Positions 1 to 11,464 of a DNA stretch of 11,464 bases are shown here, in pieces (the first letter of the stretch is position 1; every line of letters begins with the position of its first letter). Source of the stretch: a virus (lineage: Duplodnaviria > Heunggongvirae > Uroviricota > Caudoviricetes); the IMG/VR virus record IMGVR_UViG_2737471839_000021, positions 1 through 11,464 of that record. One strand, written 5' to 3'. The notes beneath the pieces were generated by a model. It did no database searches. It saw nothing but the letters and a program-made list of their open reading frames with translations, and was not told the DNA's origin. Position numbers and translations under genes: made by a program.

Positions 1-384
1 GCATACGAGATCGCAAAGGACTATTACGCTGGTGTGATGGCGAAAAAAGGCGTGGTATCAGGCGAAATTGACAATGATATCTGGAAACAGGCTGTTAACG
101 TAGCTACAGGTGGCGTGCATGACTATAACGGAATGGGGAATGTTCTTTTGCCGTGGGGAATGTCTGCAGAGCAATTCGATAAGCAGGTTAATCAGGCTTG
201 GAATGAACAAGTTGTCGGCACAGGGATAAAAACACCGCCTGGTCAGTATGGTTTGCAAAGTTACGGCGATAGTCAGTACCTGGTAAAACTTGGGACTGGA
301 TATCTGCTGAAGGATGATGGTTCTCCTGTTGTTCTTGATCTGACACAGAAGCGTCAGAGATTCTCCGGAGATATTCCGCAATGA
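1..384 (+). CDS. 3' fragment of a phage virion gene; the 5' end lies upstream of the window
   Basis: Frame 1 is open from base 1 to TGA at 382-384, so the listed 34..384 ORF is a 5'-truncated gene. Its stop overlaps the next start (ATGA at 381-384), typical of coupled phage structural operons. No recognisable motif. Confidence 0.5.
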   Translation, partial: AYEIAKDYYAGVMAKKGVVSGEIDNDIWKQAVNVATGGVHDYNGMGNVLLPWGMSAEQFDKQVNQAWNEQVVGTGIKTPPGQYGLQSYGDSQYLVKLGTGYLLKDDGSPVVLDLTQKRQRFSGDIPQ

Positions 385-2183
385 GTTACTTTGGCCTTAA
401 TCCAGTAAACCAGAATCAGCAGCTTGACGAAGCAGTATCAAATCCAGCTGGCTTTAACAGCGATGTTGGTTTTTTCGACAATGCTGTAGGAGCGGCATTG
501 TCTGGTTTGTACTCCGGGCTGGTGGCAAAGCCAGATCAGTTGCTATGGGCAGGGATGGATAAAATCGTATCCCCGATTGCTCAGTTTGTTAACGAAAACA
601 CCTCGCTCAATGACACTTCAGTTTCATACATTGCCGAGCAGAGAAAACTAGCAGAGCAGCAGGTTAAGCGGCTGACGCCTGATGCCGCGACAACCGGAAC
701 CGCAGGGCAGGTTCTTTATGGGTTGTTCGATATGGGCGGGCAGGCTGTTGTCGGTACAACGCTCGGTGGTCAGGTCGGAGGTGCGGCGGCGGTAACTTCG
801 CTACAGGGTTTTTCTGAGTTTGAACGGCTGACAGCACAGGGTGTTGATTTCAGGACAGCGCAGGAAGCGGGATTAGTGCAGGGCATTACTGCTGGTGCCG
901 GAACATTGATCCCTATGAGCCTCGGGTTACGTGCTGGTGGTGCGCTGGCGGAAGGTGTGGCGGCTCAGCTCGCGCGGACGGGTGAGAGTTCAGTGCGACG
1001 CGCCGCAGCAACAGCAGTACGTGCAACGCCAGATATTGCCTATGCCGCAGGTACAAATATTGCGTTCGGTATGGCACAGCGTGGGCTTACTGCAAAAACG
1101 CTTCGTGATGGTGGCTATAGCGAAATGGCTAACCAGTATGATGTGTTGGATCGACAGGCAATTGCTATTGATGCTGTTCTTGGGGTGGCGTTTGGTGGTG
1201 TTGGCAGATTTATTAACTCTCGCGGCGAGTCTACAAGCGCACCAAATTTTTCACCAGTTGATGTCGATGCTGCACTGGCGGCGAATGCCGCTCATCATGC
1301 TGAAATTGATATTGCTCCCGGCGTGCCGATCAACGTGCTTTCGCGCAATTCTCACATTCAGGCTCTGCGAAAAGCTATGTCTGATGTTAGCCAGGGGAGA
1401 CCTGTAGACGTTGCCAGCATTGTTGAGTCTGCATCTTTCAGTGAAATTCCAGGGCGCAAGAGTCTGCTGTCTCAGGCAGTTAATGAGGCTCTGTCATCTG
1501 TAGATGATGGAGTAACGGCGCGCGCTATAGAAAATCGGTTGCTTGAAGAACAGGCCGCGCAGCTTTTGCCGCGTGGCGATAGACAGGTTTACCAGTCTGA
1601 AATCGCTAATAGCCAACGAATTATTGAAAATCTCACTGAACAGCGCGCACAAATTCTTGCAGAAGAGCCAACAGGTAGCGGTAAAGCTTTGTCTCGTGCT
1701 CGATCAGATAAACAGGTCAGACTTCACGATATTGACCAACGAATCCGGCAGGCACAAGAACGCCTGGAATTTTCCCGTAACGCGTTGGCACCGCATGAGC
1801 CTGGCGGTCAGTTTTTTGAAGCTCGAGCAGAACTGGCACGGCGACAGCAGGCTGAAAGTGAACTTAATGCTCAGGCTGTTTCATTCTATAAAACAGCAGA
1901 GGTAAGTACGCCAGACGAAGTAGCTCCTTTTGAGCCCGGTAAGATATTGCAACAGGCAGAACAAAAGATGATGGCAGATCCGGCAGGAGATATTGATCTG
2001 CGCATAGCTGAAGATTCGCTGCTTGAATCACCGGACATGATAATAACCGTGCTGGATGATGATGGTAATCCACAATCGCGCAGCGCGCGTGAAGTGCTGG
2101 ATGAAGCGAACAGGGAAAGTGAGCAGGCAATACACGATTCCAGCCTGTTTGATGTCGCTGTGGCGTGTTTCTTGAGAGGTTAA
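381..2183 (+). CDS. Putative internal virion / ejection protein (600 aa)
   Basis: Long ORF in operon position just upstream of the tailspike. Gly/Ala/Thr-rich low-complexity N-terminal third, charged helical C-terminal half, no catalytic motif seen. Start overlaps upstream stop. Functional label rests on position and composition only. Confidence 0.55.
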   Translation: MSYFGLNPVNQNQQLDEAVSNPAGFNSDVGFFDNAVGAALSGLYSGLVAKPDQLLWAGMDKIVSPIAQFVNENTSLNDTSVSYIAEQRKLAEQQVKRLTPDAATTGTAGQVLYGLFDMGGQAVVGTTLGGQVGGAAAVTSLQGFSEFERLTAQGVDFRTAQEAGLVQGITAGAGTLIPMSLGLRAGGALAEGVAAQLARTGESSVRRAAATAVRATPDIAYAAGTNIAFGMAQRGLTAKTLRDGGYSEMANQYDVLDRQAIAIDAVLGVAFGGVGRFINSRGESTSAPNFSPVDVDAALAANAAHHAEIDIAPGVPINVLSRNSHIQALRKAMSDVSQGRPVDVASIVESASFSEIPGRKSLLSQAVNEALSSVDDGVTARAIENRLLEEQAAQLLPRGDRQVYQSEIANSQRIIENLTEQRAQILAEEPTGSGKALSRARSDKQVRLHDIDQRIRQAQERLEFSRNALAPHEPGGQFFEARAELARRQQAESELNAQAVSFYKTAEVSTPDEVAPFEPGKILQQAEQKMMADPAGDIDLRIAEDSLLESPDMIITVLDDDGNPQSRSAREVLDEANRESEQAIHDSSLFDVAVACFLRG

Positions 2184-2188
2184 ATTAA

Positions 2189-4663
2189 ATGAGACAGGAA
2201 TGTATACAAGCGGTCCAGCAGGCGGCGCAGCGCACGTTAACGGCGCGAGAAATACAGAACATTGAAGACCGCATTTATCGAAATATGCGCTCCATTGCTC
2301 GTGATGACCCGATGTCGTGGCGACAACTTTCCGAATCAGAACGGTTGTATCGTGCAGCACAATTGGCATCTGAAGAATTACAGCGAGAAGCGGCATTAAA
2401 GAAACGTCGTGTGGCCCTCACTATAGCCGCACGTCAGAGATTGGATAAATTTATCAATAGCTATCAAGGGGCTGATGGGAAACTTGGCGCTCTTAACCGT
2501 ACTATTGCTTTTAATGCAGACGGTAAATCGAATTTCCTCTCTGTTGAATCCAGAACAAAAGCCACCCGTGATTATGCATTGAGTCGATTGCAGGAGGCAT
2601 TCGAAGCAGTTGATCCTCGCTTTTTTGGTCTGTTTGAAGATGAAGCGGGCGTACGTGACCTGGTATATGAAATGCGGGGGCAAAATACTGGCAATGCTAA
2701 AGCAAGAAAAGGTGCTAAGGCGTGGAGAGAAGTTACAGAGCTGCTGCGCCGCCGGTTTAATGATGCTGGTGGGGACATTGGCTATCTCGAAAACTGGGGG
2801 ATCCCTCAACATCATTCTATGGAAAAGGTTGGGGCGGTATCAAAAGATAAATGGGTTAGCGATATTATAGGTAAGCTGGATCGCAAATATTATACCCGAG
2901 CCGATGGACAACTGATGAACGATGCCGAGTTGTCTGCATTTCTTGGAGAGGCTTATAACACGATCGCTACTGGTGGGCTGAATAAGCTTACTGATACCGG
3001 AATGCGAATTTCCGGCGCACGTGCTAACCGTGGTAATGCATCACGACAGATACATTTCAAAGATGCAGATTCCTATCTCCAATATCAACAACTTTATGGC
3101 GATCGCTCTCTATGGGAAATCATGGTCGGTCACCTGGAAGGTATCAGTAAAGATATTGCTCTGGTGGAAACATATGGTCCAAACCCCGATCATGTTTTCC
3201 GCTCCCTTCTTGATCAGGTTAAGGCAGAAACGGCAACAGCTAACCCGAGTAAAACCGGTAAAGTCGAGCGGCTGGCGAACAACACAGAGAATCTGTACAA
3301 CTTTATTTCCGGAAAGACACAGCCTGTAGCGAATCCGCACATCGCGCGATGGTCTGACAATATCCGCAACTGGCTGGTTGCCAGCAGACTCGGATCCGCG
3401 TTGCTGTCATCGTTCTCTGATCTTGGAACCATGTATCTGTCTGCGAAGGTTACCAACCTTCCAATGAACCAGTTATTCCGCAACCAACTTGAAGCTATGG
3501 ACCCAACGAACCGTACAGAACTTGCGCGGGCGCGCCGCGCTGGTCTGGCGATGGAATCTCTACTTGGCAGCGTTAACCGATGGGCGATGGATAATATGGG
3601 GCCGTCAGTGTCTCGTTGGGCGGCGACGGCGGTAATGCGTGCCAGTGGGCTTACAGCATGGTCAGATGCGCACAAGCGCGCCTATGGCGTAACCATGATG
3701 GGAAGCCTGGGAGAAGTAGTGTCACGGACACCAGACCTTCGTAGCCTCGATGACTCTGATTTTCGTATCCTGAAAAGCAAAGGGATTACTGACACAGACT
3801 GGAGCGTATGGAAGTTGGCGCAACAGGAGGACTGGGGGAACGGTAATAATACGATGCTGACACCAGAAAGCATTATGCGTATCCCTGATTCAGCAGTTAA
3901 ACATCTTGGTGAGCCTGAACGCGTGAAATTTGAGGCAATGCGTAAACTGCTCGGTGCCGTAACTGAAGAAGTTGATATGGCTGTTATTACACCGGGAGCA
4001 CGTGAGAAACTGATAACCGGTTCTGGTATTCAGCGTGGAACATGGAAAGGTGAATTAACGAGAAGTGTTTTCCTGTTTAAATCGTTCCCTATCTCGGTTG
4101 TTATGCGTCACTGGTCACGCGCTATGGGTATGCCGTCTGCTGGTGGGCGTGCGGCATATATTGCGACGTTTATTGCCAGTACGACCATTCTTGGCGCTTT
4201 GTCGCAGCAACTTAACGACCTTGCGTCGGGTCGTAATCCTCGAGAGATGACAGGAGAAGATGCCGCAAAATTCTGGCTTGGTGCTCTACTGAAAGGTGGT
4301 GGTCTTGGCCTTTACGGTGACTTTTTATTGTCAGATCACACTAGGTACGGAAGCGGCGCGCTGGCGTCGATGCTTGGCCCGGTAGCTGGTCTGGTTGATG
4401 ACGTAGTGAAGATTGCTCAGGGCATACCGTTAAATGCTGTGGAAGGGAAGAGTGAGCAGACTGGTGGTGATCTGGTGAAGCTGGGGAAAGGTTTGATGCC
4501 AGGTGCGAATCTCTGGTACTTGAAGGCGGCTCTCGATCACATGATCTTTAACCAGATGCAGGAGTATTTTTCACCAGGCTATTTGCGTAAAATGGAGCAA
4601 CGTTCGAAGAAAGAGTTTAACCAGACATACTGGTGGCGACCTCAGGATGTCACTCCGCAATAA
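2189..4663 (+). CDS. Putative large internal virion / ejection protein (824 aa)
   Basis: Starts 6 nt after the previous stop with GAGAGG about 9 nt upstream. Uninterrupted 2.4 kb ORF with a Gly-rich hydrophobic C-terminal segment (GGGLGLYGDFLL...GPVAGLVDDV). Size and position fit the large core/ejection protein of podoviruses; no sequence search was possible. Confidence 0.55.
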   Translation: MRQECIQAVQQAAQRTLTAREIQNIEDRIYRNMRSIARDDPMSWRQLSESERLYRAAQLASEELQREAALKKRRVALTIAARQRLDKFINSYQGADGKLGALNRTIAFNADGKSNFLSVESRTKATRDYALSRLQEAFEAVDPRFFGLFEDEAGVRDLVYEMRGQNTGNAKARKGAKAWREVTELLRRRFNDAGGDIGYLENWGIPQHHSMEKVGAVSKDKWVSDIIGKLDRKYYTRADGQLMNDAELSAFLGEAYNTIATGGLNKLTDTGMRISGARANRGNASRQIHFKDADSYLQYQQLYGDRSLWEIMVGHLEGISKDIALVETYGPNPDHVFRSLLDQVKAETATANPSKTGKVERLANNTENLYNFISGKTQPVANPHIARWSDNIRNWLVASRLGSALLSSFSDLGTMYLSAKVTNLPMNQLFRNQLEAMDPTNRTELARARRAGLAMESLLGSVNRWAMDNMGPSVSRWAATAVMRASGLTAWSDAHKRAYGVTMMGSLGEVVSRTPDLRSLDDSDFRILKSKGITDTDWSVWKLAQQEDWGNGNNTMLTPESIMRIPDSAVKHLGEPERVKFEAMRKLLGAVTEEVDMAVITPGAREKLITGSGIQRGTWKGELTRSVFLFKSFPISVVMRHWSRAMGMPSAGGRAAYIATFIASTTILGALSQQLNDLASGRNPREMTGEDAAKFWLGALLKGGGLGLYGDFLLSDHTRYGSGALASMLGPVAGLVDDVVKIAQGIPLNAVEGKSEQTGGDLVKLGKGLMPGANLWYLKAALDHMIFNQMQEYFSPGYLRKMEQRSKKEFNQTYWWRPQDVTPQ

Positions 4664-4672
4664 GGAAGTGTT

Positions 4673-4846
4673 GTGTTTTTAATTATTTTGAGTGTGATAA
4701 TTTCTGGTGGATTGTTATTTATTGACCGCTACAAATATTTTCTTAACCCTCAGACTCAAGCTATTTGCTGGTTCATCTTTGTTGTGCAGGGAGTAGTTCT
4801 TGTTGCAAGCCTTATTGAGGGGAGGCCTCTTATTTTTACTGGGTAA
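4673..4846 (+). CDS. Possible small two-TM membrane peptide (about 57 aa), GTG start, absent from the ATG-based ORF track
   Basis: Frame-2 ORF open from 4664 to TAA 4844-4846. AAGGAAG (4662-4668) lies just upstream of GTG 4673; alternative starts TTG 4688 and GTG 4694. Translation ...LIILSVIISGGLLFIDRYKYFLNPQTQAICWFIFVVQGVVLVASLIEGRPLIFTG has two hydrophobic helices. It fills an otherwise empty 195-bp gap and ends 12 nt before the next gene. Non-ATG start keeps confidence low. Confidence 0.3.
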   Translation: MFLIILSVIISGGLLFIDRYKYFLNPQTQAICWFIFVVQGVVLVASLIEGRPLIFTG

Positions 4847-4858
4847 ATAGGTGACTAC

Positions 4859-5155
4859 ATGCAAGCTATAGGATTCATTGTTTATATCGTCGTTGGTCTT
4901 TTTCAGTTGGCAGCAATTATGGCTGGGCTTGAATCATGGTGGGGATTGCACTGGATAATTGCAGCCCCCATTGCTTTCATCGTGAGCTATATTCCATTTG
5001 TTGGAGCGATTGTTGGTATGGTTGGCGCTGTGGATGTATGGCGGTGGGAGTGGTGGCAGGCTGGCCTTCTCTTCTTTGGTGGGATCATCTTTGCTATTGT
5101 CTGCGGTGGAATGTCATCATTTTTCGAATGGCTATCATTCAGAAAAGGGACGTGA
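4859..5155 (+). CDS. Small Trp-rich integral membrane protein (98 aa, about 3 TM helices), unknown function
   Basis: ATG at 4859 preceded by AGGTGA. Three long hydrophobic segments (IGFIVYIVVGLFQLAAIMAGL, WIIAAPIAFIVSYIPFVGAIVGMVGAV, AGLLFFGGIIFAIVCGG) with Trp clusters at the segment borders. Followed directly by an intrinsic terminator. Confidence 0.6.
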   Translation: MQAIGFIVYIVVGLFQLAAIMAGLESWWGLHWIIAAPIAFIVSYIPFVGAIVGMVGAVDVWRWEWWQAGLLFFGGIIFAIVCGGMSSFFEWLSFRKGT

Positions 5156-5190
5156 CATGTCACAGGCCGCTTTCGCGGCCTTTTCTTTAT
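5152..5190. terminator. Bidirectional intrinsic terminator between convergent genes
   Basis: Perfect 12-bp palindrome GTGACATGTCAC (5152-5163) overlaps the TGA of the membrane-protein gene. It is followed by a GC hairpin AGGCCGC-tttc-GCGGCCT (5164-5181) and a T-run (5182-5188). On the minus strand the same hairpins are followed by TTTTCT. Confidence 0.55.
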
Positions 5191-5444
5191 GTGGTTTGTT
5201 TTCGTAATTGTTCGGCACAATAGTCGAGATGTGTTTGCAGATCCTGCATAGACATCTGTGAGCTGGTGACGTAGTTAATCAGTGCAGTCAGTTCGGCAAG
5301 TGGGCCATCGACATTAAATCCATCCTTATCGAGATCCCGGAGTAATTTCATCAAGTGCGATCCCTCCACCAGTGATCTGACGCCTCCCGGCGTGTGAATC
5401 CTTTCGGTAAATCCGTCTTCCAGTGGATAGTGATACTGCTGCAT
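5187..5444 (-). CDS. Small soluble acidic protein (85 aa) of unknown function with a LexA box in its promoter; candidate SOS-inducible antirepressor or effector
   Basis: Minus-strand ORF. The track begins at a TTG (5462), but the first ATG (5444) is preceded by GGAGAAG with about 8-nt spacing, so 5444 is taken as start. Product MQQYHYPLEDGFTERIHTPGG...DYCAEQLRKQTT has no TM segment. LexA box lies 20 bp upstream. Confidence 0.6.
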   Translation of the reverse strand: MQQYHYPLEDGFTERIHTPGGVRSLVEGSHLMKLLRDLDKDGFNVDGPLAELTALINYVTSSQMSMQDLQTHLDYCAEQLRKQTT

Positions 5445-5463
5445 CTTATCTTCTCCATGCAAT

Positions 5464-5483
5464 AACTGTATATTTATACAGTA
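5464..5483. promoter_or_regulatory. LexA (SOS) operator, near-consensus
   Basis: AACTGTATATTTATACAGTA: CTGT-N8-ACAG with an AT-rich spacer, matching the E. coli LexA consensus TACTG(TA)5CAGTA; the core ACTGTATA..TATACAGT is a perfect palindrome. Sits 20-40 bp upstream of the minus-strand start at 5444, overlapping the expected promoter. Confidence 0.65.
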
Positions 5484-5639
5484 TCAAATAATTTGTTTGC
5501 TATCCAGCACGTTTTGCAAATCACCTGAAAGGTAATATCTGTTCGTATTTATGGGTTGTCTATCCATATGTGGTTTTTCAGGTAATAGAATAACCGGATA
5601 TGCGGCGCAACGGGTGCTGCGACTATCTGGAGATTTAAC

Positions 5640-8279
5640 ATGACGGTCTCAACCGAAGTTAACCACAACGAATACACAGGTAATGGTGTTACGACCACAT
5701 TCCCTTACACCTTTAGGGTTTTCAATAAATCTGATCTGGTGGTGCAGGTTATTGACCTTGAAGAAAATATCGCTGTGCTGGCTCCTGATACTGATTACAC
5801 CGTTACCGGGGCTGGAGGATATAACGGCGGTAATGTAATTCTGTCGAAGGCACTGGCTAACGGTTATCAGATTTCTATATCGCGAGAACTGAAGGTTACT
5901 CAGGAAACAGATCTGAGAAACCAGGGTAAGTTTTTTGCTGAGGTGCATGAAGACGCGTTCGATAAGCTGACTATGCTGATTCAGCAGGTGCGCAGTTTGT
6001 TTTCTCTGGCCCTTCGTAAGCCGTCGTTTGTGGCTAACTATTATGATGCTCTGAACAACTATATTAGAAATCTTCGCGATCCCATACGCCAACAGGATGC
6101 GGCTACAAAGAACTATGTGGATATGCTTGCTGAAAATAATATAAACAAAACACTGCGTGTTCCTGAGGGTTTTATACCATCACTTCCACCTGTATCTCAG
6201 CGAAAAAACAAAATTGTAGCTATGAACGATAATGGCGTTCCAATTATGGTATTGCCGGAAAGCGGTTCTGCTGCGGATGTGCTTATAGAGTTAGCTAAAT
6301 CCAATGGCACAAATAATATAAACGGAACAAAACACGTTCTTGGAGCTGAAGCAAGAAATCTTACTGACATGTTGTCTGACGAGATATCAGTTCGTGATTT
6401 TGGTGGTAATGATGATTACGATGGAACAAATTCTGATTCATGCACAAATAACCTGATTGCTTTTCAAAAATATTTTGAATACCTGAACTCTATTGGTGGT
6501 GGGAATTTAAATATACCAAAGACAAACACAGGCAAGTATTATATTAGTGGTGATGATCATACGCATGTGTCAAGTGATATTATGATATGTGCTGATAATG
6601 ATGTTTCTATTCATCTAAATTTTTCTGGTGGGTCATCAAACACTCCATTTGCTAACCTTGACCTGAAAGCATTACGTCAAATAAAAATAGAGTATGTTAA
6701 TTTTGGTTACAATTCATATGTTGGTGGGAGAGTCGATGTTCCGTTAGGTGACTTACTGCAAACCATGAATAATGGTAGCGGTGTCTACTCAATTCCAGAA
6801 TCTCTATCAGGAGATAATTTTTTCGTTATCGCACTGGGTAACAACACCACATCAATACCTCCGATATCATCAAGTGCAGATTCTATTTTATTTAATGGTT
6901 CAGGTGTTCCAACAGCGGCCACGATAAGCGCAATGCCTGGCGATGAAATTATGTCAATGGTTAGCGCACCGGTAACAGGAGGTATCCTTGCTGGTGTTGT
7001 GACGGCCGGTGGTTATGCGTTTGTATCTCAAGATACATCAACCGGAGATGTTGTTATTGCAGAAGGTACAACTGGTCAGCCAAATATACTTAACGGATTG
7101 AATTACGCTCTGATGGACCAATTGCGCGATAGATTTGACATGGCGCTGCTATCAGTAAAAGTTACTTCATCAAGAACTTTTACTGTAATGGCGAATGGTT
7201 TGGCAGTCGCAAGCCACACGACACGCTCGACAATTCTTGGTGTCTGTTTTGGTGCTAAAGATATTAACAATACAATCAGTGTTTCTCAGATGTCGCGTGT
7301 AAGGGGGAATAGCTTTTCTGGATCAAAACCATTAAAAATATTGGTATGCGGGGATTCTATTACTGATCAAAATAACCAGTATTCATGGGCCAAATATCTC
7401 CAGATGCAGTTGGGATCAGCTGGGATTAACATTGCTGAAATTAAAAATCTGGCAGTTGCTGGCCATACGGCAGCACAGCAATTAAGCATATTGCAGACAG
7501 TAGGCGTTGGTTATGATCTGTGCTTAATTCAGGTCGGAGTTAATGATGTTCAGATGCAAACTCCTGTTTTTAGTTTTATGTCAACAATAAGTCAAATGGT
7601 TACTTATTCTAAAAGCATTGGCGCATTTCCTATTGTTGGTGTACCAACGGCTTTTTATTCTCTTGCCGAAGCGAATGCTAACGGTCAAAGAGGAGGCCAG
7701 AATACATCAAACAATAATCTTATAGGTTTGTATCGTTCTTTGCTTATACGAGCTGTGGCATCGGCTGGTGGGATTGTTAATCTTGAACCTATGAAAGGAC
7801 ATGGGGCGATGACAGCGAAGTGGCTATCGATTGATCCGTATGCTGTTAGTGACAGCATTGTATTAGATAACATTCACCCAACACCATACGGTTCAATGCT
7901 ACTTGCGCAGGGATTCTCGCGCAGCATTATTGGTTGGCTTACTCGCCCTGATTTAACAGCAACAGAAAGTTTTGAATCAATCCCTACTCAGTGGTTAAGT
8001 CCCGGTTTTGGTACGACGTCGCTACCTAAAATCAAAGGAAGAACATTATCTGGTTTAATTAGTTTACATGAAACAAACATAAATGATGGCTCATTAGCAT
8101 TTACTCTGCCTCCTGCAATAAAACTTGATCAGCCAAGAATGCTAAGCGTTATTGGTGTTGGAGACAATGATCTCCCGGTTGGTCCATGCAGCATGTATAT
8201 AGGCACTGACGGAAAATGCTATTTTTTTAACCTTGCAGCAGGAACGAAGAAAATCTCACTTGATGGAGTTGAGATTTAG
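5640..8279 (+). CDS. Tailspike / tail fibre (879 aa): T7 gp17-like N-terminal anchor, beta-helix signature, SGNH/GDSL esterase domain
   Basis: ATG 5640 with GGAG upstream. Residues about 10-150 follow the T7 gp17 N-terminal tail-attachment pattern (YTGNG..FPYTF, TDYTV, EVHEDAFDKL). Around residue 250, SVRDFGGNDDYDGTNSD resembles the (V)xDFGAxGDGxTDD opening of beta-helix tailspikes. SGNH blocks: GDSIT (Ser 573, nt 7356-7358), GVND (res 633-636), DNIH (Asp 743/His 746, nt 7866-7877). Confidence 0.85.
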   Translation: MTVSTEVNHNEYTGNGVTTTFPYTFRVFNKSDLVVQVIDLEENIAVLAPDTDYTVTGAGGYNGGNVILSKALANGYQISISRELKVTQETDLRNQGKFFAEVHEDAFDKLTMLIQQVRSLFSLALRKPSFVANYYDALNNYIRNLRDPIRQQDAATKNYVDMLAENNINKTLRVPEGFIPSLPPVSQRKNKIVAMNDNGVPIMVLPESGSAADVLIELAKSNGTNNINGTKHVLGAEARNLTDMLSDEISVRDFGGNDDYDGTNSDSCTNNLIAFQKYFEYLNSIGGGNLNIPKTNTGKYYISGDDHTHVSSDIMICADNDVSIHLNFSGGSSNTPFANLDLKALRQIKIEYVNFGYNSYVGGRVDVPLGDLLQTMNNGSGVYSIPESLSGDNFFVIALGNNTTSIPPISSSADSILFNGSGVPTAATISAMPGDEIMSMVSAPVTGGILAGVVTAGGYAFVSQDTSTGDVVIAEGTTGQPNILNGLNYALMDQLRDRFDMALLSVKVTSSRTFTVMANGLAVASHTTRSTILGVCFGAKDINNTISVSQMSRVRGNSFSGSKPLKILVCGDSITDQNNQYSWAKYLQMQLGSAGINIAEIKNLAVAGHTAAQQLSILQTVGVGYDLCLIQVGVNDVQMQTPVFSFMSTISQMVTYSKSIGAFPIVGVPTAFYSLAEANANGQRGGQNTSNNNLIGLYRSLLIRAVASAGGIVNLEPMKGHGAMTAKWLSIDPYAVSDSIVLDNIHPTPYGSMLLAQGFSRSIIGWLTRPDLTATESFESIPTQWLSPGFGTTSLPKIKGRTLSGLISLHETNINDGSLAFTLPPAIKLDQPRMLSVIGVGDNDLPVGPCSMYIGTDGKCYFFNLAAGTKKISLDGVEI

Positions 8280-8378
8280 AGTGTCAAATCAATAGTAATT
8301 ATTATCCGTAAATGGTTTATTGTGTATGATGAGTTCACCAATAAGTGAGTTCATCATGCACGTTAAACGGTGGTTTTT

Positions 8379-8783
8379 ATGTCAGTTCAGCTAACCAGTG
8401 AGTCTTTAAATCAGTGGCTTAGTGCGGGTTCTCTTGCTGCGGTGATAGCAGGTGTTCCTCCAGAGGTGGCTTTGGGAGCTTTGGCTGGGGCGGTAATTTT
8501 TGTTACCTCAGCTATCGAGTATCCCATTCATCGTCGGGTTCTCCTGTCTATGCTCAGCTTCCTCTGCGGCCTTCTCTTTTACAAACCTACAGCATCCATC
8601 CTTATCGGTGTAGCCAGCCTGATCCCTACCATCACGCAGGACTCTTTCGAGAAAGGGATCGTCTTCTCTGCTGGCGCATTTGTGTCGTCAATTGTCGCCG
8701 TGCGTATTGGTATATGGCTCTATCACCGTTCCGATAATCCACGCGAGTTAATTCCGGGGAGAAAAGACGATGGTAACGCATGA
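8379..8783 (+). CDS. Holin-like membrane protein (134 aa from ATG 8379; GTG 8370 is an alternative start)
   Basis: First gene of the lysis cassette. Three to four hydrophobic helices and a charged C-terminal tail ([18 protein letters not shown]). Track start is GTG 8370 (M-V-F-M...), first ATG 8379 with GGTGG upstream. Overlaps the next gene by 14 nt. Confidence 0.55.
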   Translation: MSVQLTSESLNQWLSAGSLAAVIAGVPPEVALGALAGAVIFVTSAIEYPIHRRVLLSMLSFLCGLLFYKPTASILIGVASLIPTITQDSFEKGIVFSAGAFVSSIVAVRIGIWLYHRSDNPRELIPGRKDDGNA

Positions 8784-9078
8784 GCTTTTTTTACTTATCA
8801 CCAATGCGGTTATTTGCACTGGTATAGCCGTTCGAGTTGTCACATTTCGGCGAAACGGTTCTCAACACAGGCGATGGGGTGGGTGGCTGGCTTATTTCCT
8901 GATTGTTGCTGCGGCCAGCATTCCAGTTCGTGTCGCTTATGCAATCTGGTTACGCACACCAATGGTTGTGGATTTATCTGAGGTCATTATCAACGCTGTC
9001 ATGCTTGCTGCAGTCATTAAAACGCGCGGTAACGTAGTTCAGATTTTCAAAATAACGAGGTCTAAACATGGAGATTAA
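8770..9078 (+). CDS. Second holin-like / antiholin membrane protein (102 aa)
   Basis: Three hydrophobic segments with a basic C-terminus ([19 protein letters not shown]). Overlaps the upstream holin-like gene and the downstream endolysin start, so it is translationally coupled within the lysis cassette. Confidence 0.55.
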
Positions 9079-9697
9079 ACAATTCCAGCGAGCTGCTGGT
9101 ATCAGCGAGGCGCTGGCTGCACGCTGGTTCTCGCATATTAATTATGCGATGAAAGAATTTGGTATCAGCAAACCAGAAGATCTGGCAATGTTTATTGCTC
9201 AGGTCGGGCATGAGTCTGTTGGCTTCACCAGATTGCAGGAGAATTTCAACTACAGTGTCAGTGGACTGGCTAACTTCGTTCGGGCTGGGCGTCTCACTCA
9301 GGGGCAGGCTAATGCACTGGGTCGCCGTGCTGGTGAACCACCATTGCCACTCGAGCGCCAGCGAGCGATCGCCAATCTGGTGTACAGCAAACGCATGGGG
9401 AACAATGCCCCTGGTGATGGCTGGAATTACCGGGGACGCGGACTTATCCAGATTACCGGTTTGAATAACTATCGTGATTGCGGAAACGGTCTGAAGGTTG
9501 ACCTGCTGGAGAGCCCTGAACTGCTGGCGCAGGACGAATATGCGGCTCGTAGCGCGGCGTGGTTCTTCGCCAGCAAAGGATGCATGAAGTATACCGGAGA
9601 TATTGCACGTGTAACTCTGATTATCAATGGCGGTAGGAATGGCATCGACGACAGGCGCGCGCGGTACATCACTGCCAGTAAGGTGCTGGTGGTATGA
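9068..9697 (+). CDS. Endolysin, glycoside hydrolase family 19 (chitinase-like) type
   Basis: 209 aa; ATG 9068 preceded by GAGG. Carries [12 protein letters not shown]...QENFNYS with two closely spaced Glu (GH19 catalytic pair arrangement) and GRGLIQITG. No signal peptide or TM, consistent with holin-dependent release. Stop overlaps the Rz start (ATGA at 9694-9697). Confidence 0.85.
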
Positions 9698-10176
9698 TCT
9701 GGGCATTCGTAAAAGCATACTGGAAACAGTTGGTTATCATGGCGATGCTTGCTGTTCTGGTTATATCAGGAGTTGTAGCCTGGAATGCACACGGCAGTCG
9801 TCAGTACGACGCCGGGTATGCGCAGGCGAAAGAAGACTGCAAAGCCGAAGAAGAAAAAGTTCGTCAGCACCACGAACAGGAGAAAGCGACCAATGAACGT
9901 GAAGCGCAGCAGAGGATCGAACAGGCGCGCAGTGATGCTCTTGATGCTGCCGCTCGCGCTGGCAGGTTGCAGCAACAGCTCGTTGCCATCCGTGAGCAGC
10001 TCAGGCAGTATAACGCCATTGTCGGCGCTGGGTCGTCAGCCGCAGATACCGGAGTTTTGCTTGCCGACGTGTTCAGCAAATCTCTCGAGAGAAATAGACA
10101 ACTGGCAGAGTATGCTGACCGGGCAGCCGAAGCCGGAAGAGTCTGCGAAAAACAGTACGACACCATGACCAGATAG
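9694..10176 (+). CDS. Rz: Rz-type inner-membrane spanin (i-spanin), 160 aa
   Basis: N-terminal TM anchor ([21 protein letters not shown]) followed by a charged, coiled-coil-prone periplasmic domain. Immediately downstream of the endolysin and contains an embedded +1-frame lipoprotein ORF. Confidence 0.8.
9893..10168 (+). CDS. Rz1: Rz1-type outer-membrane lipoprotein spanin (o-spanin), embedded in Rz in the +1 frame
   Basis: Within track ORF 9785..10168, Met at 9893 begins [28 protein letters not shown]...: basic n-region, hydrophobic core, lipobox LAGC, then a Pro/Ser-rich short mature peptide. Start could alternatively be Met 9935. Entirely inside Rz. Confidence 0.7.
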   Translation: MNVKRSRGSNRRAVMLLMLPLALAGCSNSSLPSVSSSGSITPLSALGRQPQIPEFCLPTCSANLSREIDNWQSMLTGQPKPEESAKNSTTP

Positions 10177-10325
10177 CATGGCATTTTTCATGGTACTGAT
10201 TTTTGGTGACGGTATATAAAACGGTATGGTGAAAATCATGTTGCAGAAAGTTGTTGTCAGTCAATTGGTTATGTATTTCGTAAATAATTGAGTGGGAATG
10301 ATTTGACCCTGCACTATGAATGAAC

Positions 10326-10356
10326 AAAACCCTCTGTTACTACAGAGGGTTTTTTA
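10326..10356. terminator. Intrinsic terminator downstream of the lysis cassette, probably bidirectional
   Basis: AAAACCCTCTGT-tact-ACAGAGGGTTTTTT: 10-12 bp GC-containing stem, 4-nt loop, T6 tract on the + strand. On the minus strand the same stem is followed by TTTT, downstream of the convergent gene ending at 10394. Confidence 0.65.
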
Positions 10357-10393
10357 TCTTCAAGAATTATAGGATTGAAGTTACTAACATCGA

Positions 10394-10933
10394 TTAATTA
10401 AACCAGCTGTCCGATTTGTTCTCTTCTGCTTTGCCCACGCTTTTCATCAGATCGCGACCGCCTTCAGTCATATTTCTGTTGGCGTCAGCTTCAGATTGCA
10501 CCACATCGGTTTGCGCAGCTTTGTGCTTCAGTTCCTGATCGATAAATTCGTTTTCTCGCTTAACGCGGGCTTCTTCTTTCGCCAGCGCCAGTTTTTGTTT
10601 CTGAATCTCTAAGCTGCGTAGCTCATCTTCATAACTTTGATCGCGTTTTTTGTCCGCAGAGGCTTCGGCGTCCAGTTTATCCTGACGAGCTTTCTTATTT
10701 GCCGCTGCCGTTGCCGCTCTTTTGTTAGCGGCGGCCTGGGCATTTGCGCGACGTTGCTTCTCTTGCTGGATTTCCCTGTTGCGCTCCGCGACCCATTCGT
10801 CATGCTGCCTTTGCTCTTCATTTTTACCTTGCTGTTCCGCTTCTGCGACAGCAGAGAGTTGATCCTGCAATGATGAGGCGATAGCCGGATAGCTTAAGGA
10901 GGCTAAGATGGCGCAAAGAAAAACTTTCTTCAT
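10394..10933 (-). CDS. Secreted, highly charged (K/E/R/A/Q-rich) probable coiled-coil periplasmic protein (179 aa)
   Basis: N-terminal signal peptide MKKVFLCAILASLSYPAIA with an AxA cleavage site, then low-complexity charged helical sequence. RBS AGGAGGAG upstream on the minus strand. No enzymatic motif. Confidence 0.6.
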   Translation of the reverse strand: MKKVFLCAILASLSYPAIASSLQDQLSAVAEAEQQGKNEEQRQHDEWVAERNREIQQEKQRRANAQAAANKRAATAAANKKARQDKLDAEASADKKRDQSYEDELRSLEIQKQKLALAKEEARVKRENEFIDQELKHKAAQTDVVQSEADANRNMTEGGRDLMKSVGKAEENKSDSWFN

Positions 10934-10948
10934 GACTCCTCCTGATTA

Positions 10949-11464
10949 TTAGCTCTTTTCAGGACATTTGGTATTTGGCTGAATACGCGTTTCGTTATAC
11001 GTCGTGGTAATAACAACGGCTAAACCTGTCGTAAACTGGCACTCTTTACCCACCTGGGTAGAGGTATACACTTTGGTGCCTTCCTTATAGGTTAAAGAAA
11101 CACCTTCCACTAAGGTTTTATCATTCACCATAGAACCCGCTGCCGCGCCTACAGCTCCGCCGCCAACTGCACCTGCCGTCGTTCCGGAATTGCTGCCAGA
11201 CCCGACGTTGTGGCCGATAACACCGCCAGCGACTGCGCCAATAAGCGCGCCGAAGGCTTGTGCGTTCCGTTTATTTTGGGAGTTGTCTACGGCAACTTTT
11301 GCGGGAAGAATGGAAATAATATTAACGGTTTTAGTTTCTTGTTTGGTATTCAGTTGATCGGTTTGATAAACATCGGCAGCATGATCGTCAGCATTTGACT
11401 GGCATCCTGCCAGAGTGAATGACGCTAACATTGCCACAGGCAGAAGACATTTTTTAAATTTCAT
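10949..11464 (-). CDS. Outer-membrane lipoprotein with glycine-zipper domain (SlyB / 17-kDa-antigen-like), 171 aa
   Basis: Start ATG is the last 3 nt of the window (11462-11464). Lipoprotein signal MKFKKCLLPVAMLASFTLAGCQ with lipobox LAGC. Central GALIGAVAGGVIGHNVGSGSNSGTTAGAVGGGAVGAAAG is a glycine-zipper motif as in SlyB-family lipoproteins. Runs 15 nt upstream of the secreted-protein gene on the same strand, a likely two-gene operon. Confidence 0.7.
   Translation of the reverse strand: MKFKKCLLPVAMLASFTLAGCQSNADDHAADVYQTDQLNTKQETKTVNIISILPAKVAVDNSQNKRNAQAFGALIGAVAGGVIGHNVGSGSNSGTTAGAVGGGAVGAAAGSMVNDKTLVEGVSLTYKEGTKVYTSTQVGKECQFTTGLAVVITTTYNETRIQPNTKCPEKS

Follow-up and report, generated by a model that had tools for sequence, protein, structure and literature searches.

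Prophages of the Uetakevirus group (phiV10, epsilon15 and vB_EcoP_ZX5) are inserted in the 3' end of guaA, and the core common to attP and attB of vB_EcoP_ZX5 has been published as attgagtgggaatgatt (PMC9782041). In the free phiV10 genome, Rz/Rz1 is followed by a terminator and then by the integrase gene, with attP located before int, and yfgH and yfgI are absent. In E. coli chromosomes of the K-12 type, yfgH and yfgI lie together, flanked by guaA and by yfgG/pdeF; the pair is treated as an operon in the literature, and the orthologous operon of S. Typhi, srgIL, is regulated by SdiA (PMC11619404). A further point of comparison is bor of lambda and its DLP12 counterpart borD, each of which, like yfgH in the DNA studied here, is a small outer-membrane lipoprotein gene found on the opposite strand just after Rz/Rz1. 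However, bor is part of the prophage and moves with the phage, whereas yfgH and yfgI belong to the core genes of the host and are located outside att.

The window analyzed here is the whole stretch of 11,464 nucleotides (positions 1 to 11,464 of IMG/VR record IMGVR_UViG_2737471839_000021). It is virtually certain that bases 10304-11464 are E. coli chromosome, comprising the guaA/yfgI terminator and the yfgH-yfgI operon, directly outside attR of a phiV10/epsilon15-type (Uetakevirus) prophage that shares the insertion site in the 3' end of guaA with the prophages named above. The features around this junction are as follows.

9694-10176, plus strand: Rz-like i-spanin (DUF2514), the final phage gene ahead of the prophage end (Pfam PF10721, E=9.9e-42; counterpart of phiV10 p30)
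9893-10168, plus strand: embedded Rz1-like o-spanin lipoprotein in the +1 frame (from the ORF list, with coordinates mapped from the phiV10 p30a annotation)
10177-10286, no strand: phage-derived arm of attR, corresponding to the attP left arm (alignable to phiV10 attP but not to prophage-free attB)
10287-10303, plus strand: att common core ATTGAGTGGGAATGATT, 17 bp, the sole stretch shared by attP, attB, attL and attR
10326-10353, no strand: host intrinsic terminator of the convergent guaA and yfgI genes, with a 12-bp stem and a 4-nt loop
10394-10933, minus strand: yfgI, encoding a secreted (predicted periplasmic) DUF5384 protein of 179 aa (Pfam PF17358; RefSeq name yfgI)
10934-10948, minus strand: yfgH-yfgI spacer of 15 nt with an AGGAGG ribosome-binding site (read from the sequence)
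10949-11464, minus strand: yfgH, encoding an outer-membrane glycine-zipper (SlyB-like) lipoprotein of 171 aa (Pfam PF05433; RefSeq name yfgH)

The junction was defined by a four-way att alignment in which the window represented attR, the prophage-free strain WG5 attB, the lysogen OkiPb01684 attL and the free phage phiV10 attP. To the left of the core the window tracks phiV10 attP, and to the right it tracks host attB, terminator hairpin included; the attP/attB/attL/attR pattern around ATTGAGTGGGAATGATT is a textbook one. The core is identical to the published 17-bp Uetakevirus sequence, and its bases 10287-10301 are the final four codons of guaA (I-E-W-E) and the stop codon. When the megablast query was extended leftwards to position 9600, complete E. 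coli genomes fell into two classes. Prophage-free genomes match the window only from base 10287 (base 688 of the query), in a stretch that overlaps the end of guaA. In the other class, about 526 of the 5426 genomes, the match continues into Rz and the endolysin gene and the lysis cassette abuts yfgI, which puts occupancy of the guaA site at roughly 10% of strains. Taken together, the start of homology at 10287, the att alignment and the gene order of the free phage indicate that the window crosses the right end (attR) of a phiV10-type prophage. Phage DNA stops at approximately 10286-10303; from the terminator through yfgI and yfgH, the sequence belongs to the host. Base composition over the junction was uninformative.

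Comparison of the two reference strains shows the same locus in its empty and occupied states. The gene order in WG5 is xseA, guaB, guaA, yfgI, yfgH, yfgG, pdeF, with 92 bp separating the end of guaA from yfgI, while in OkiPb01684 guaA and yfgI are separated by a prophage of approximately 39 kb, with its tyrosine integrase gene next to guaA, its lysis cassette next to yfgI, and a junction 99.7% identical to that of the window. The yfgH-yfgI DNA of the window is 97-100% identical to that of many E. coli chromosomes and is the same operon; the only change relative to the standard locus is that the prophage moves guaA about 39 kb away, the genes themselves being unchanged. The window covers the right end of the prophage, and attL and the integrase end were viewed in the related strain, since the left end in the source genome lies beyond the window; in OkiPb01684, a P4-type tyrosine integrase, which is also present in phiV10, lies next to an intact guaA. 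The prophage would have been inserted by tyrosine-integrase recombination at the 17-bp core in the 3' end of guaA, an event that would turn the lysis genes into the right end of the prophage, and the lysis cassette adjoins yfgI only because attP sits between Rz/Rz1 and int in the phage genome. The integrase-side arm of the phiV10-type attP bears a near-copy of the host guaA terminator hairpin (AACCCTCTGTTTTTACAGAGGGTTTTT, compared with AACCCTCTGTTACTACAGAGGGTTTTT in the host), located at about 19450-19500 on the minus strand of the OkiPb01684 attL locus and at 2282-2314 of the phiV10 locus. This implies that an integrated prophage leaves guaA with its final codons and also with a terminator, the latter at attL.

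The initial annotation, made from the sequence alone, had placed two envelope-protein genes on the opposite strand after Rz/Rz1, which the ORF positions bear out, and had offered two readings of them: lysogenic-conversion genes in the position occupied by bor in lambda, or host genes marking the prophage boundary. The position and orientation of the pair suit the former reading, as do the existence of PHROG families for both proteins, the diverged copies of the pair on P7 and other P1-like phages, and the phage record TL-2011b, in which both genes are listed. Nevertheless, both genes lie beyond the att core in DNA that is collinear with prophage-free attB. The region 10180-11464 was found by megablast in 5422 of 5426 complete E. 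coli genomes (99.9%), with a median of one copy per genome, nearly all of them chromosomal and annotated yfgI and yfgH, and the comparison with prophage-free strains that the initial annotation had proposed places both genes at the same locus next to guaA in WG5. Moreover, the pair is absent from phiV10, HEMP4, phiv142-3, ZX5 and other free Uetakevirus genomes, and among Uetakevirus-type (phiV10-like) records, 10304-11464 is matched only by TL-2011b, a record that merely runs about 3.5 kb past attR into yfgI-yfgH-yfgG. No sequence relation to bor was found, the Pfam matches of YfgH being to Gly-zipper, SlyB and TraT-like families only. A bor-like moron was expected to lie inside att, to occur in the free phage and to be missing from non-lysogens, and it was rejected when the pair showed none of these properties. 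The moron reading therefore has next to no chance of being right, and the second alternative of the initial annotation, host genes at a prophage boundary, is the correct one, with the core of the att site that it had proposed to look for at 10287-10303 and the integrase next to guaA in OkiPb01684.

Nothing at this locus is new, be it the genes, the site of integration, the core or the type of phage, and the analysis adds no knowledge of phage morons. Its chief value is the boundary call, with the prophage ending at 10303 and chromosome to the right. To treat yfgI-yfgH as phage cargo is an error, and the same error is already present in a public record: TL-2011b (NC_019445, 6088-9512) overruns attR by about 3.5 kb into host DNA and annotates as phage genes not only yfgI, yfgH and yfgG but also the beginning of the host gene that follows.

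A bidirectional terminator had also been proposed between the lysis cassette and the two genes. The hairpin at 10326-10353 is real and strong on both strands (-19.4 kcal/mol on the plus strand and -18.7 kcal/mol on the minus strand, with z-scores of -5.8 and -4.7); none of 200 shuffled sequences folded equally well, and runs of U follow it in both directions. It is, however, the host guaBA/yfgI terminator, and its assignment as a phage element was rejected because it is identical in prophage-free attB. This hairpin also bears on the possibility that yfgH and yfgI are host genes whose expression is altered by the prophage, for example by antisense read-through from the late/lysis operon into yfgI, producing an envelope effect that resembles conversion. 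The lysis operon and yfgHI are indeed convergent, and a scan of 9600-11464 found no terminator-like site from Rz to the att core, leaving the host hairpin alone between them. Yet the hairpin is strong both ways and unaltered by integration, the yfgH promoter lies on the far side of the genes and is untouched by integration, and the related phage ZX5, as a lysogen at the guaA site, had no measurable effect on growth, on the stress response, or on sensitivity to serum or antibiotics (PMC9782041). An effect of the prophage on the expression of these genes is thus highly improbable.

To the left of the junction, the phage DNA aligns to phiV10, HEMP4 and phiv142-3 at 94-96% identity, the aligned portion amounting to about 75% of bases 1-10303; the lysis cassette falls in this identity range. 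Upstream of the junction, the lysis cassette comprises holins of families PF16931 and PF05449, a GH19 endolysin and the Rz protein of family DUF2514 (Pfam). Relative to phiV10, the prophage is mosaic in its tailspike/accessory region: the tailspike region and the small membrane ORFs at 4673-5462 are unlike phiV10, in which an O-acetyltransferase gene occupies this position. The tailspike itself (879 aa; 5640-8279, plus strand) carries a C-terminal GDSL/SGNH esterase domain at residues 567-757, which suggests a putative O-antigen-deacetylating or esterase receptor-destroying activity. At 381-4663, the plus strand carries two large ORFs, 600 and 824 aa long, that had no Pfam match and are counterparts of the internal virion/ejection proteins of phiV10-like phages.

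The description of the lipoprotein as SlyB-like with a glycine zipper stands. YfgH has an L-A-G-C lipobox with Cys21 and Gln rather than Asp at position +2, a Gly-zipper at residues 72-113 (PF05433, 33.2 bits against a cutoff of 24.2) within a segment, residues 67-116, that is 28% Gly, and a phmmer match to SlyB (7ojf; E=4e-10) that extends over the full length of the protein, aligning query residues 8-163 with residues 6-154 of the chain. In NCBIfam, YfgH gave sub-threshold matches to YiaD and PRK11280 only. The window ends on an ATG, and the RefSeq start of yfgH is a GTG one codon upstream, just past the window end. YfgH and SlyB (PDB 7ojf/7ojg) share the lipobox, the glycine-zipper hairpin and a C-terminal beta domain, although their sequence identity is low. 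To our knowledge, SlyB has no YfgI-like partner gene. Deletion of yfgH causes sensitivity to SDS plus EDTA, higher outer-membrane permeability and depletion of OMPs under stress, and overexpression of YfgH rescues knock-downs of outer-membrane biogenesis genes (bioRxiv 10.64898/2025.12.22.696046). The same study reports that mutations in clsA suppress the yfgH deletion phenotype, whereas the slyB suppressors are in mla, and its authors propose that SlyB-like oligomeric rings of YfgH stabilize cardiolipin-rich nanodomains; the rings are AF3 models alone, and the authors grant that there is no strong biochemical evidence for them. According to this one preprint, YfgH would act when the envelope is stressed, stabilizing both the outer membrane and the proteins in it, and would be linked to cardiolipin.

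The second protein had been described as a signal-peptide protein with a highly charged helical body, a description that the ORF at 10394-10933 matches in each respect. YfgI covers the whole of the PF17358 profile (positions 1-145 of 145; E=7.5e-62, 208.2 bits against a cutoff of 25). Its N-terminus, MKKVFLCAILASLSYPAIA/SS, reads as a Sec signal of the signal-peptidase-I type lacking a lipobox, and the P7 homologue carries a sig_peptide annotation. The mature part is 39% D/E/K/R and 16% hydrophobic, and AlphaFold2 modelled the protein as a single continuous helix over residues 3-178 (mean pLDDT 85, pTM 0.35), so that mature YfgI is predicted to be one charged helix of about 160 residues. Searches of the YfgI sequence against solved structures returned chance coiled-coil matches only, all with E>0.1, and no NCBIfam family was found for it. 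Conservation is concentrated in the first N-terminal residues of the mature protein, which carry the motif SLQDQLSAVA, and in the C-terminal half (approximately residues 94-179, ending in SWFN). The length of YfgI varies within E. coli (179, 177, 175, 173 and 170 aa), a variation that appears to map to a central Ala/Lys-rich stretch of low complexity. The single published yfgI phenotype is the nalidixic-acid sensitivity of a mutant (PMC3536626), which is not an obvious fit to a role in the envelope. In E. coli G3/10 (NZ_CP060075, 6070-7150), one of the few genomes without the pair, an IS1A element lies between guaA and yfgG in place of yfgI-yfgH, and the loss of the pair to IS1 in this strain indicates that it is dispensable.

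Each of the 26 loci of sufficient length for assessment had a yfgH homologue directly upstream of yfgI; these loci belong to Escherichia, Citrobacter, Xenorhabdus, Pantoea, Pseudomonas duriflava, Haemophilus haemolyticus, an Acidisoma MAG, unclassified proteobacterial MAGs and phage P7. Evidence of mobile elements was sought by ORF inspection around the distant loci of Xenorhabdus, Pantoea, Pseudomonas and Haemophilus; the neighbors were housekeeping-like, and we make no claim that the yfgHI module is mobile there. Because the genes are always adjacent and translationally close, YfgI presumably acts with YfgH, and from this gene order we infer that YfgI may be a periplasmic partner of YfgH.

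Truly phage-borne copies of a diverged yfgH-yfgI pair occur in P7, SJ46, RCS47 and other P1-like phage-plasmids, and this type of gene is therefore not intrinsically non-phage. The P7 pair (NC_050152, 5007-6071) has the same order and architecture as that of the window, with identities of 69% between Upf50.5 and YfgH and of 47% between Upf50.0 and YfgI. The P7 copies are nevertheless diverged paralogues with the tail-tube operon on one side and immI on the other, whereas the window copy is the chromosomal orthologue. About 186 plasmid records also contained homologues of less than 60% identity. The plasmids were for the most part non-mobilizable, with E. coli or Salmonella as their source; among the matches listed, sizes were about 80-370 kb, most of them 88-146 kb. 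A literature search on DUF5384, upf50.0 and upf50.5 found nothing. It is conceivable, though on the whole unlikely, that yfgH and yfgI form an obligately paired envelope module, in which the YfgI helix of about 160 residues would, for example, scaffold or regulate YfgH assemblies, that this module has enough mobility for P7/P1-like phage-plasmids to have acquired it, and that upf50.5/upf50.0 is a true lysogenic-conversion cassette that hardens the outer membrane of the host. This proposal concerns the gene family; the copy in the window is plainly the host's. The strict pairing with YfgH, a protein recently tied to outer-membrane stabilization, and the presence of a phage-plasmid copy make the YfgH-YfgI partnership worth testing.

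Further database errors came to light in the searches with these genes. The YfgH-type lipoprotein is named 'DNA methyltransferase' in PHROG phrog_1277 and in RefSeq phage CDSs (TL-2011b, 6643-7158; P7, 5550-6071), a label that is plainly a propagating annotation error. Fragments of yfgI 97-100% identical to E. coli were also found on very short, low-coverage contigs of Gram-positive assemblies (Fredinandcohnia humi, 274 bp; Brevibacterium, 336 bp; and Staphylococcus aureus), and these are almost certainly E. coli contamination.
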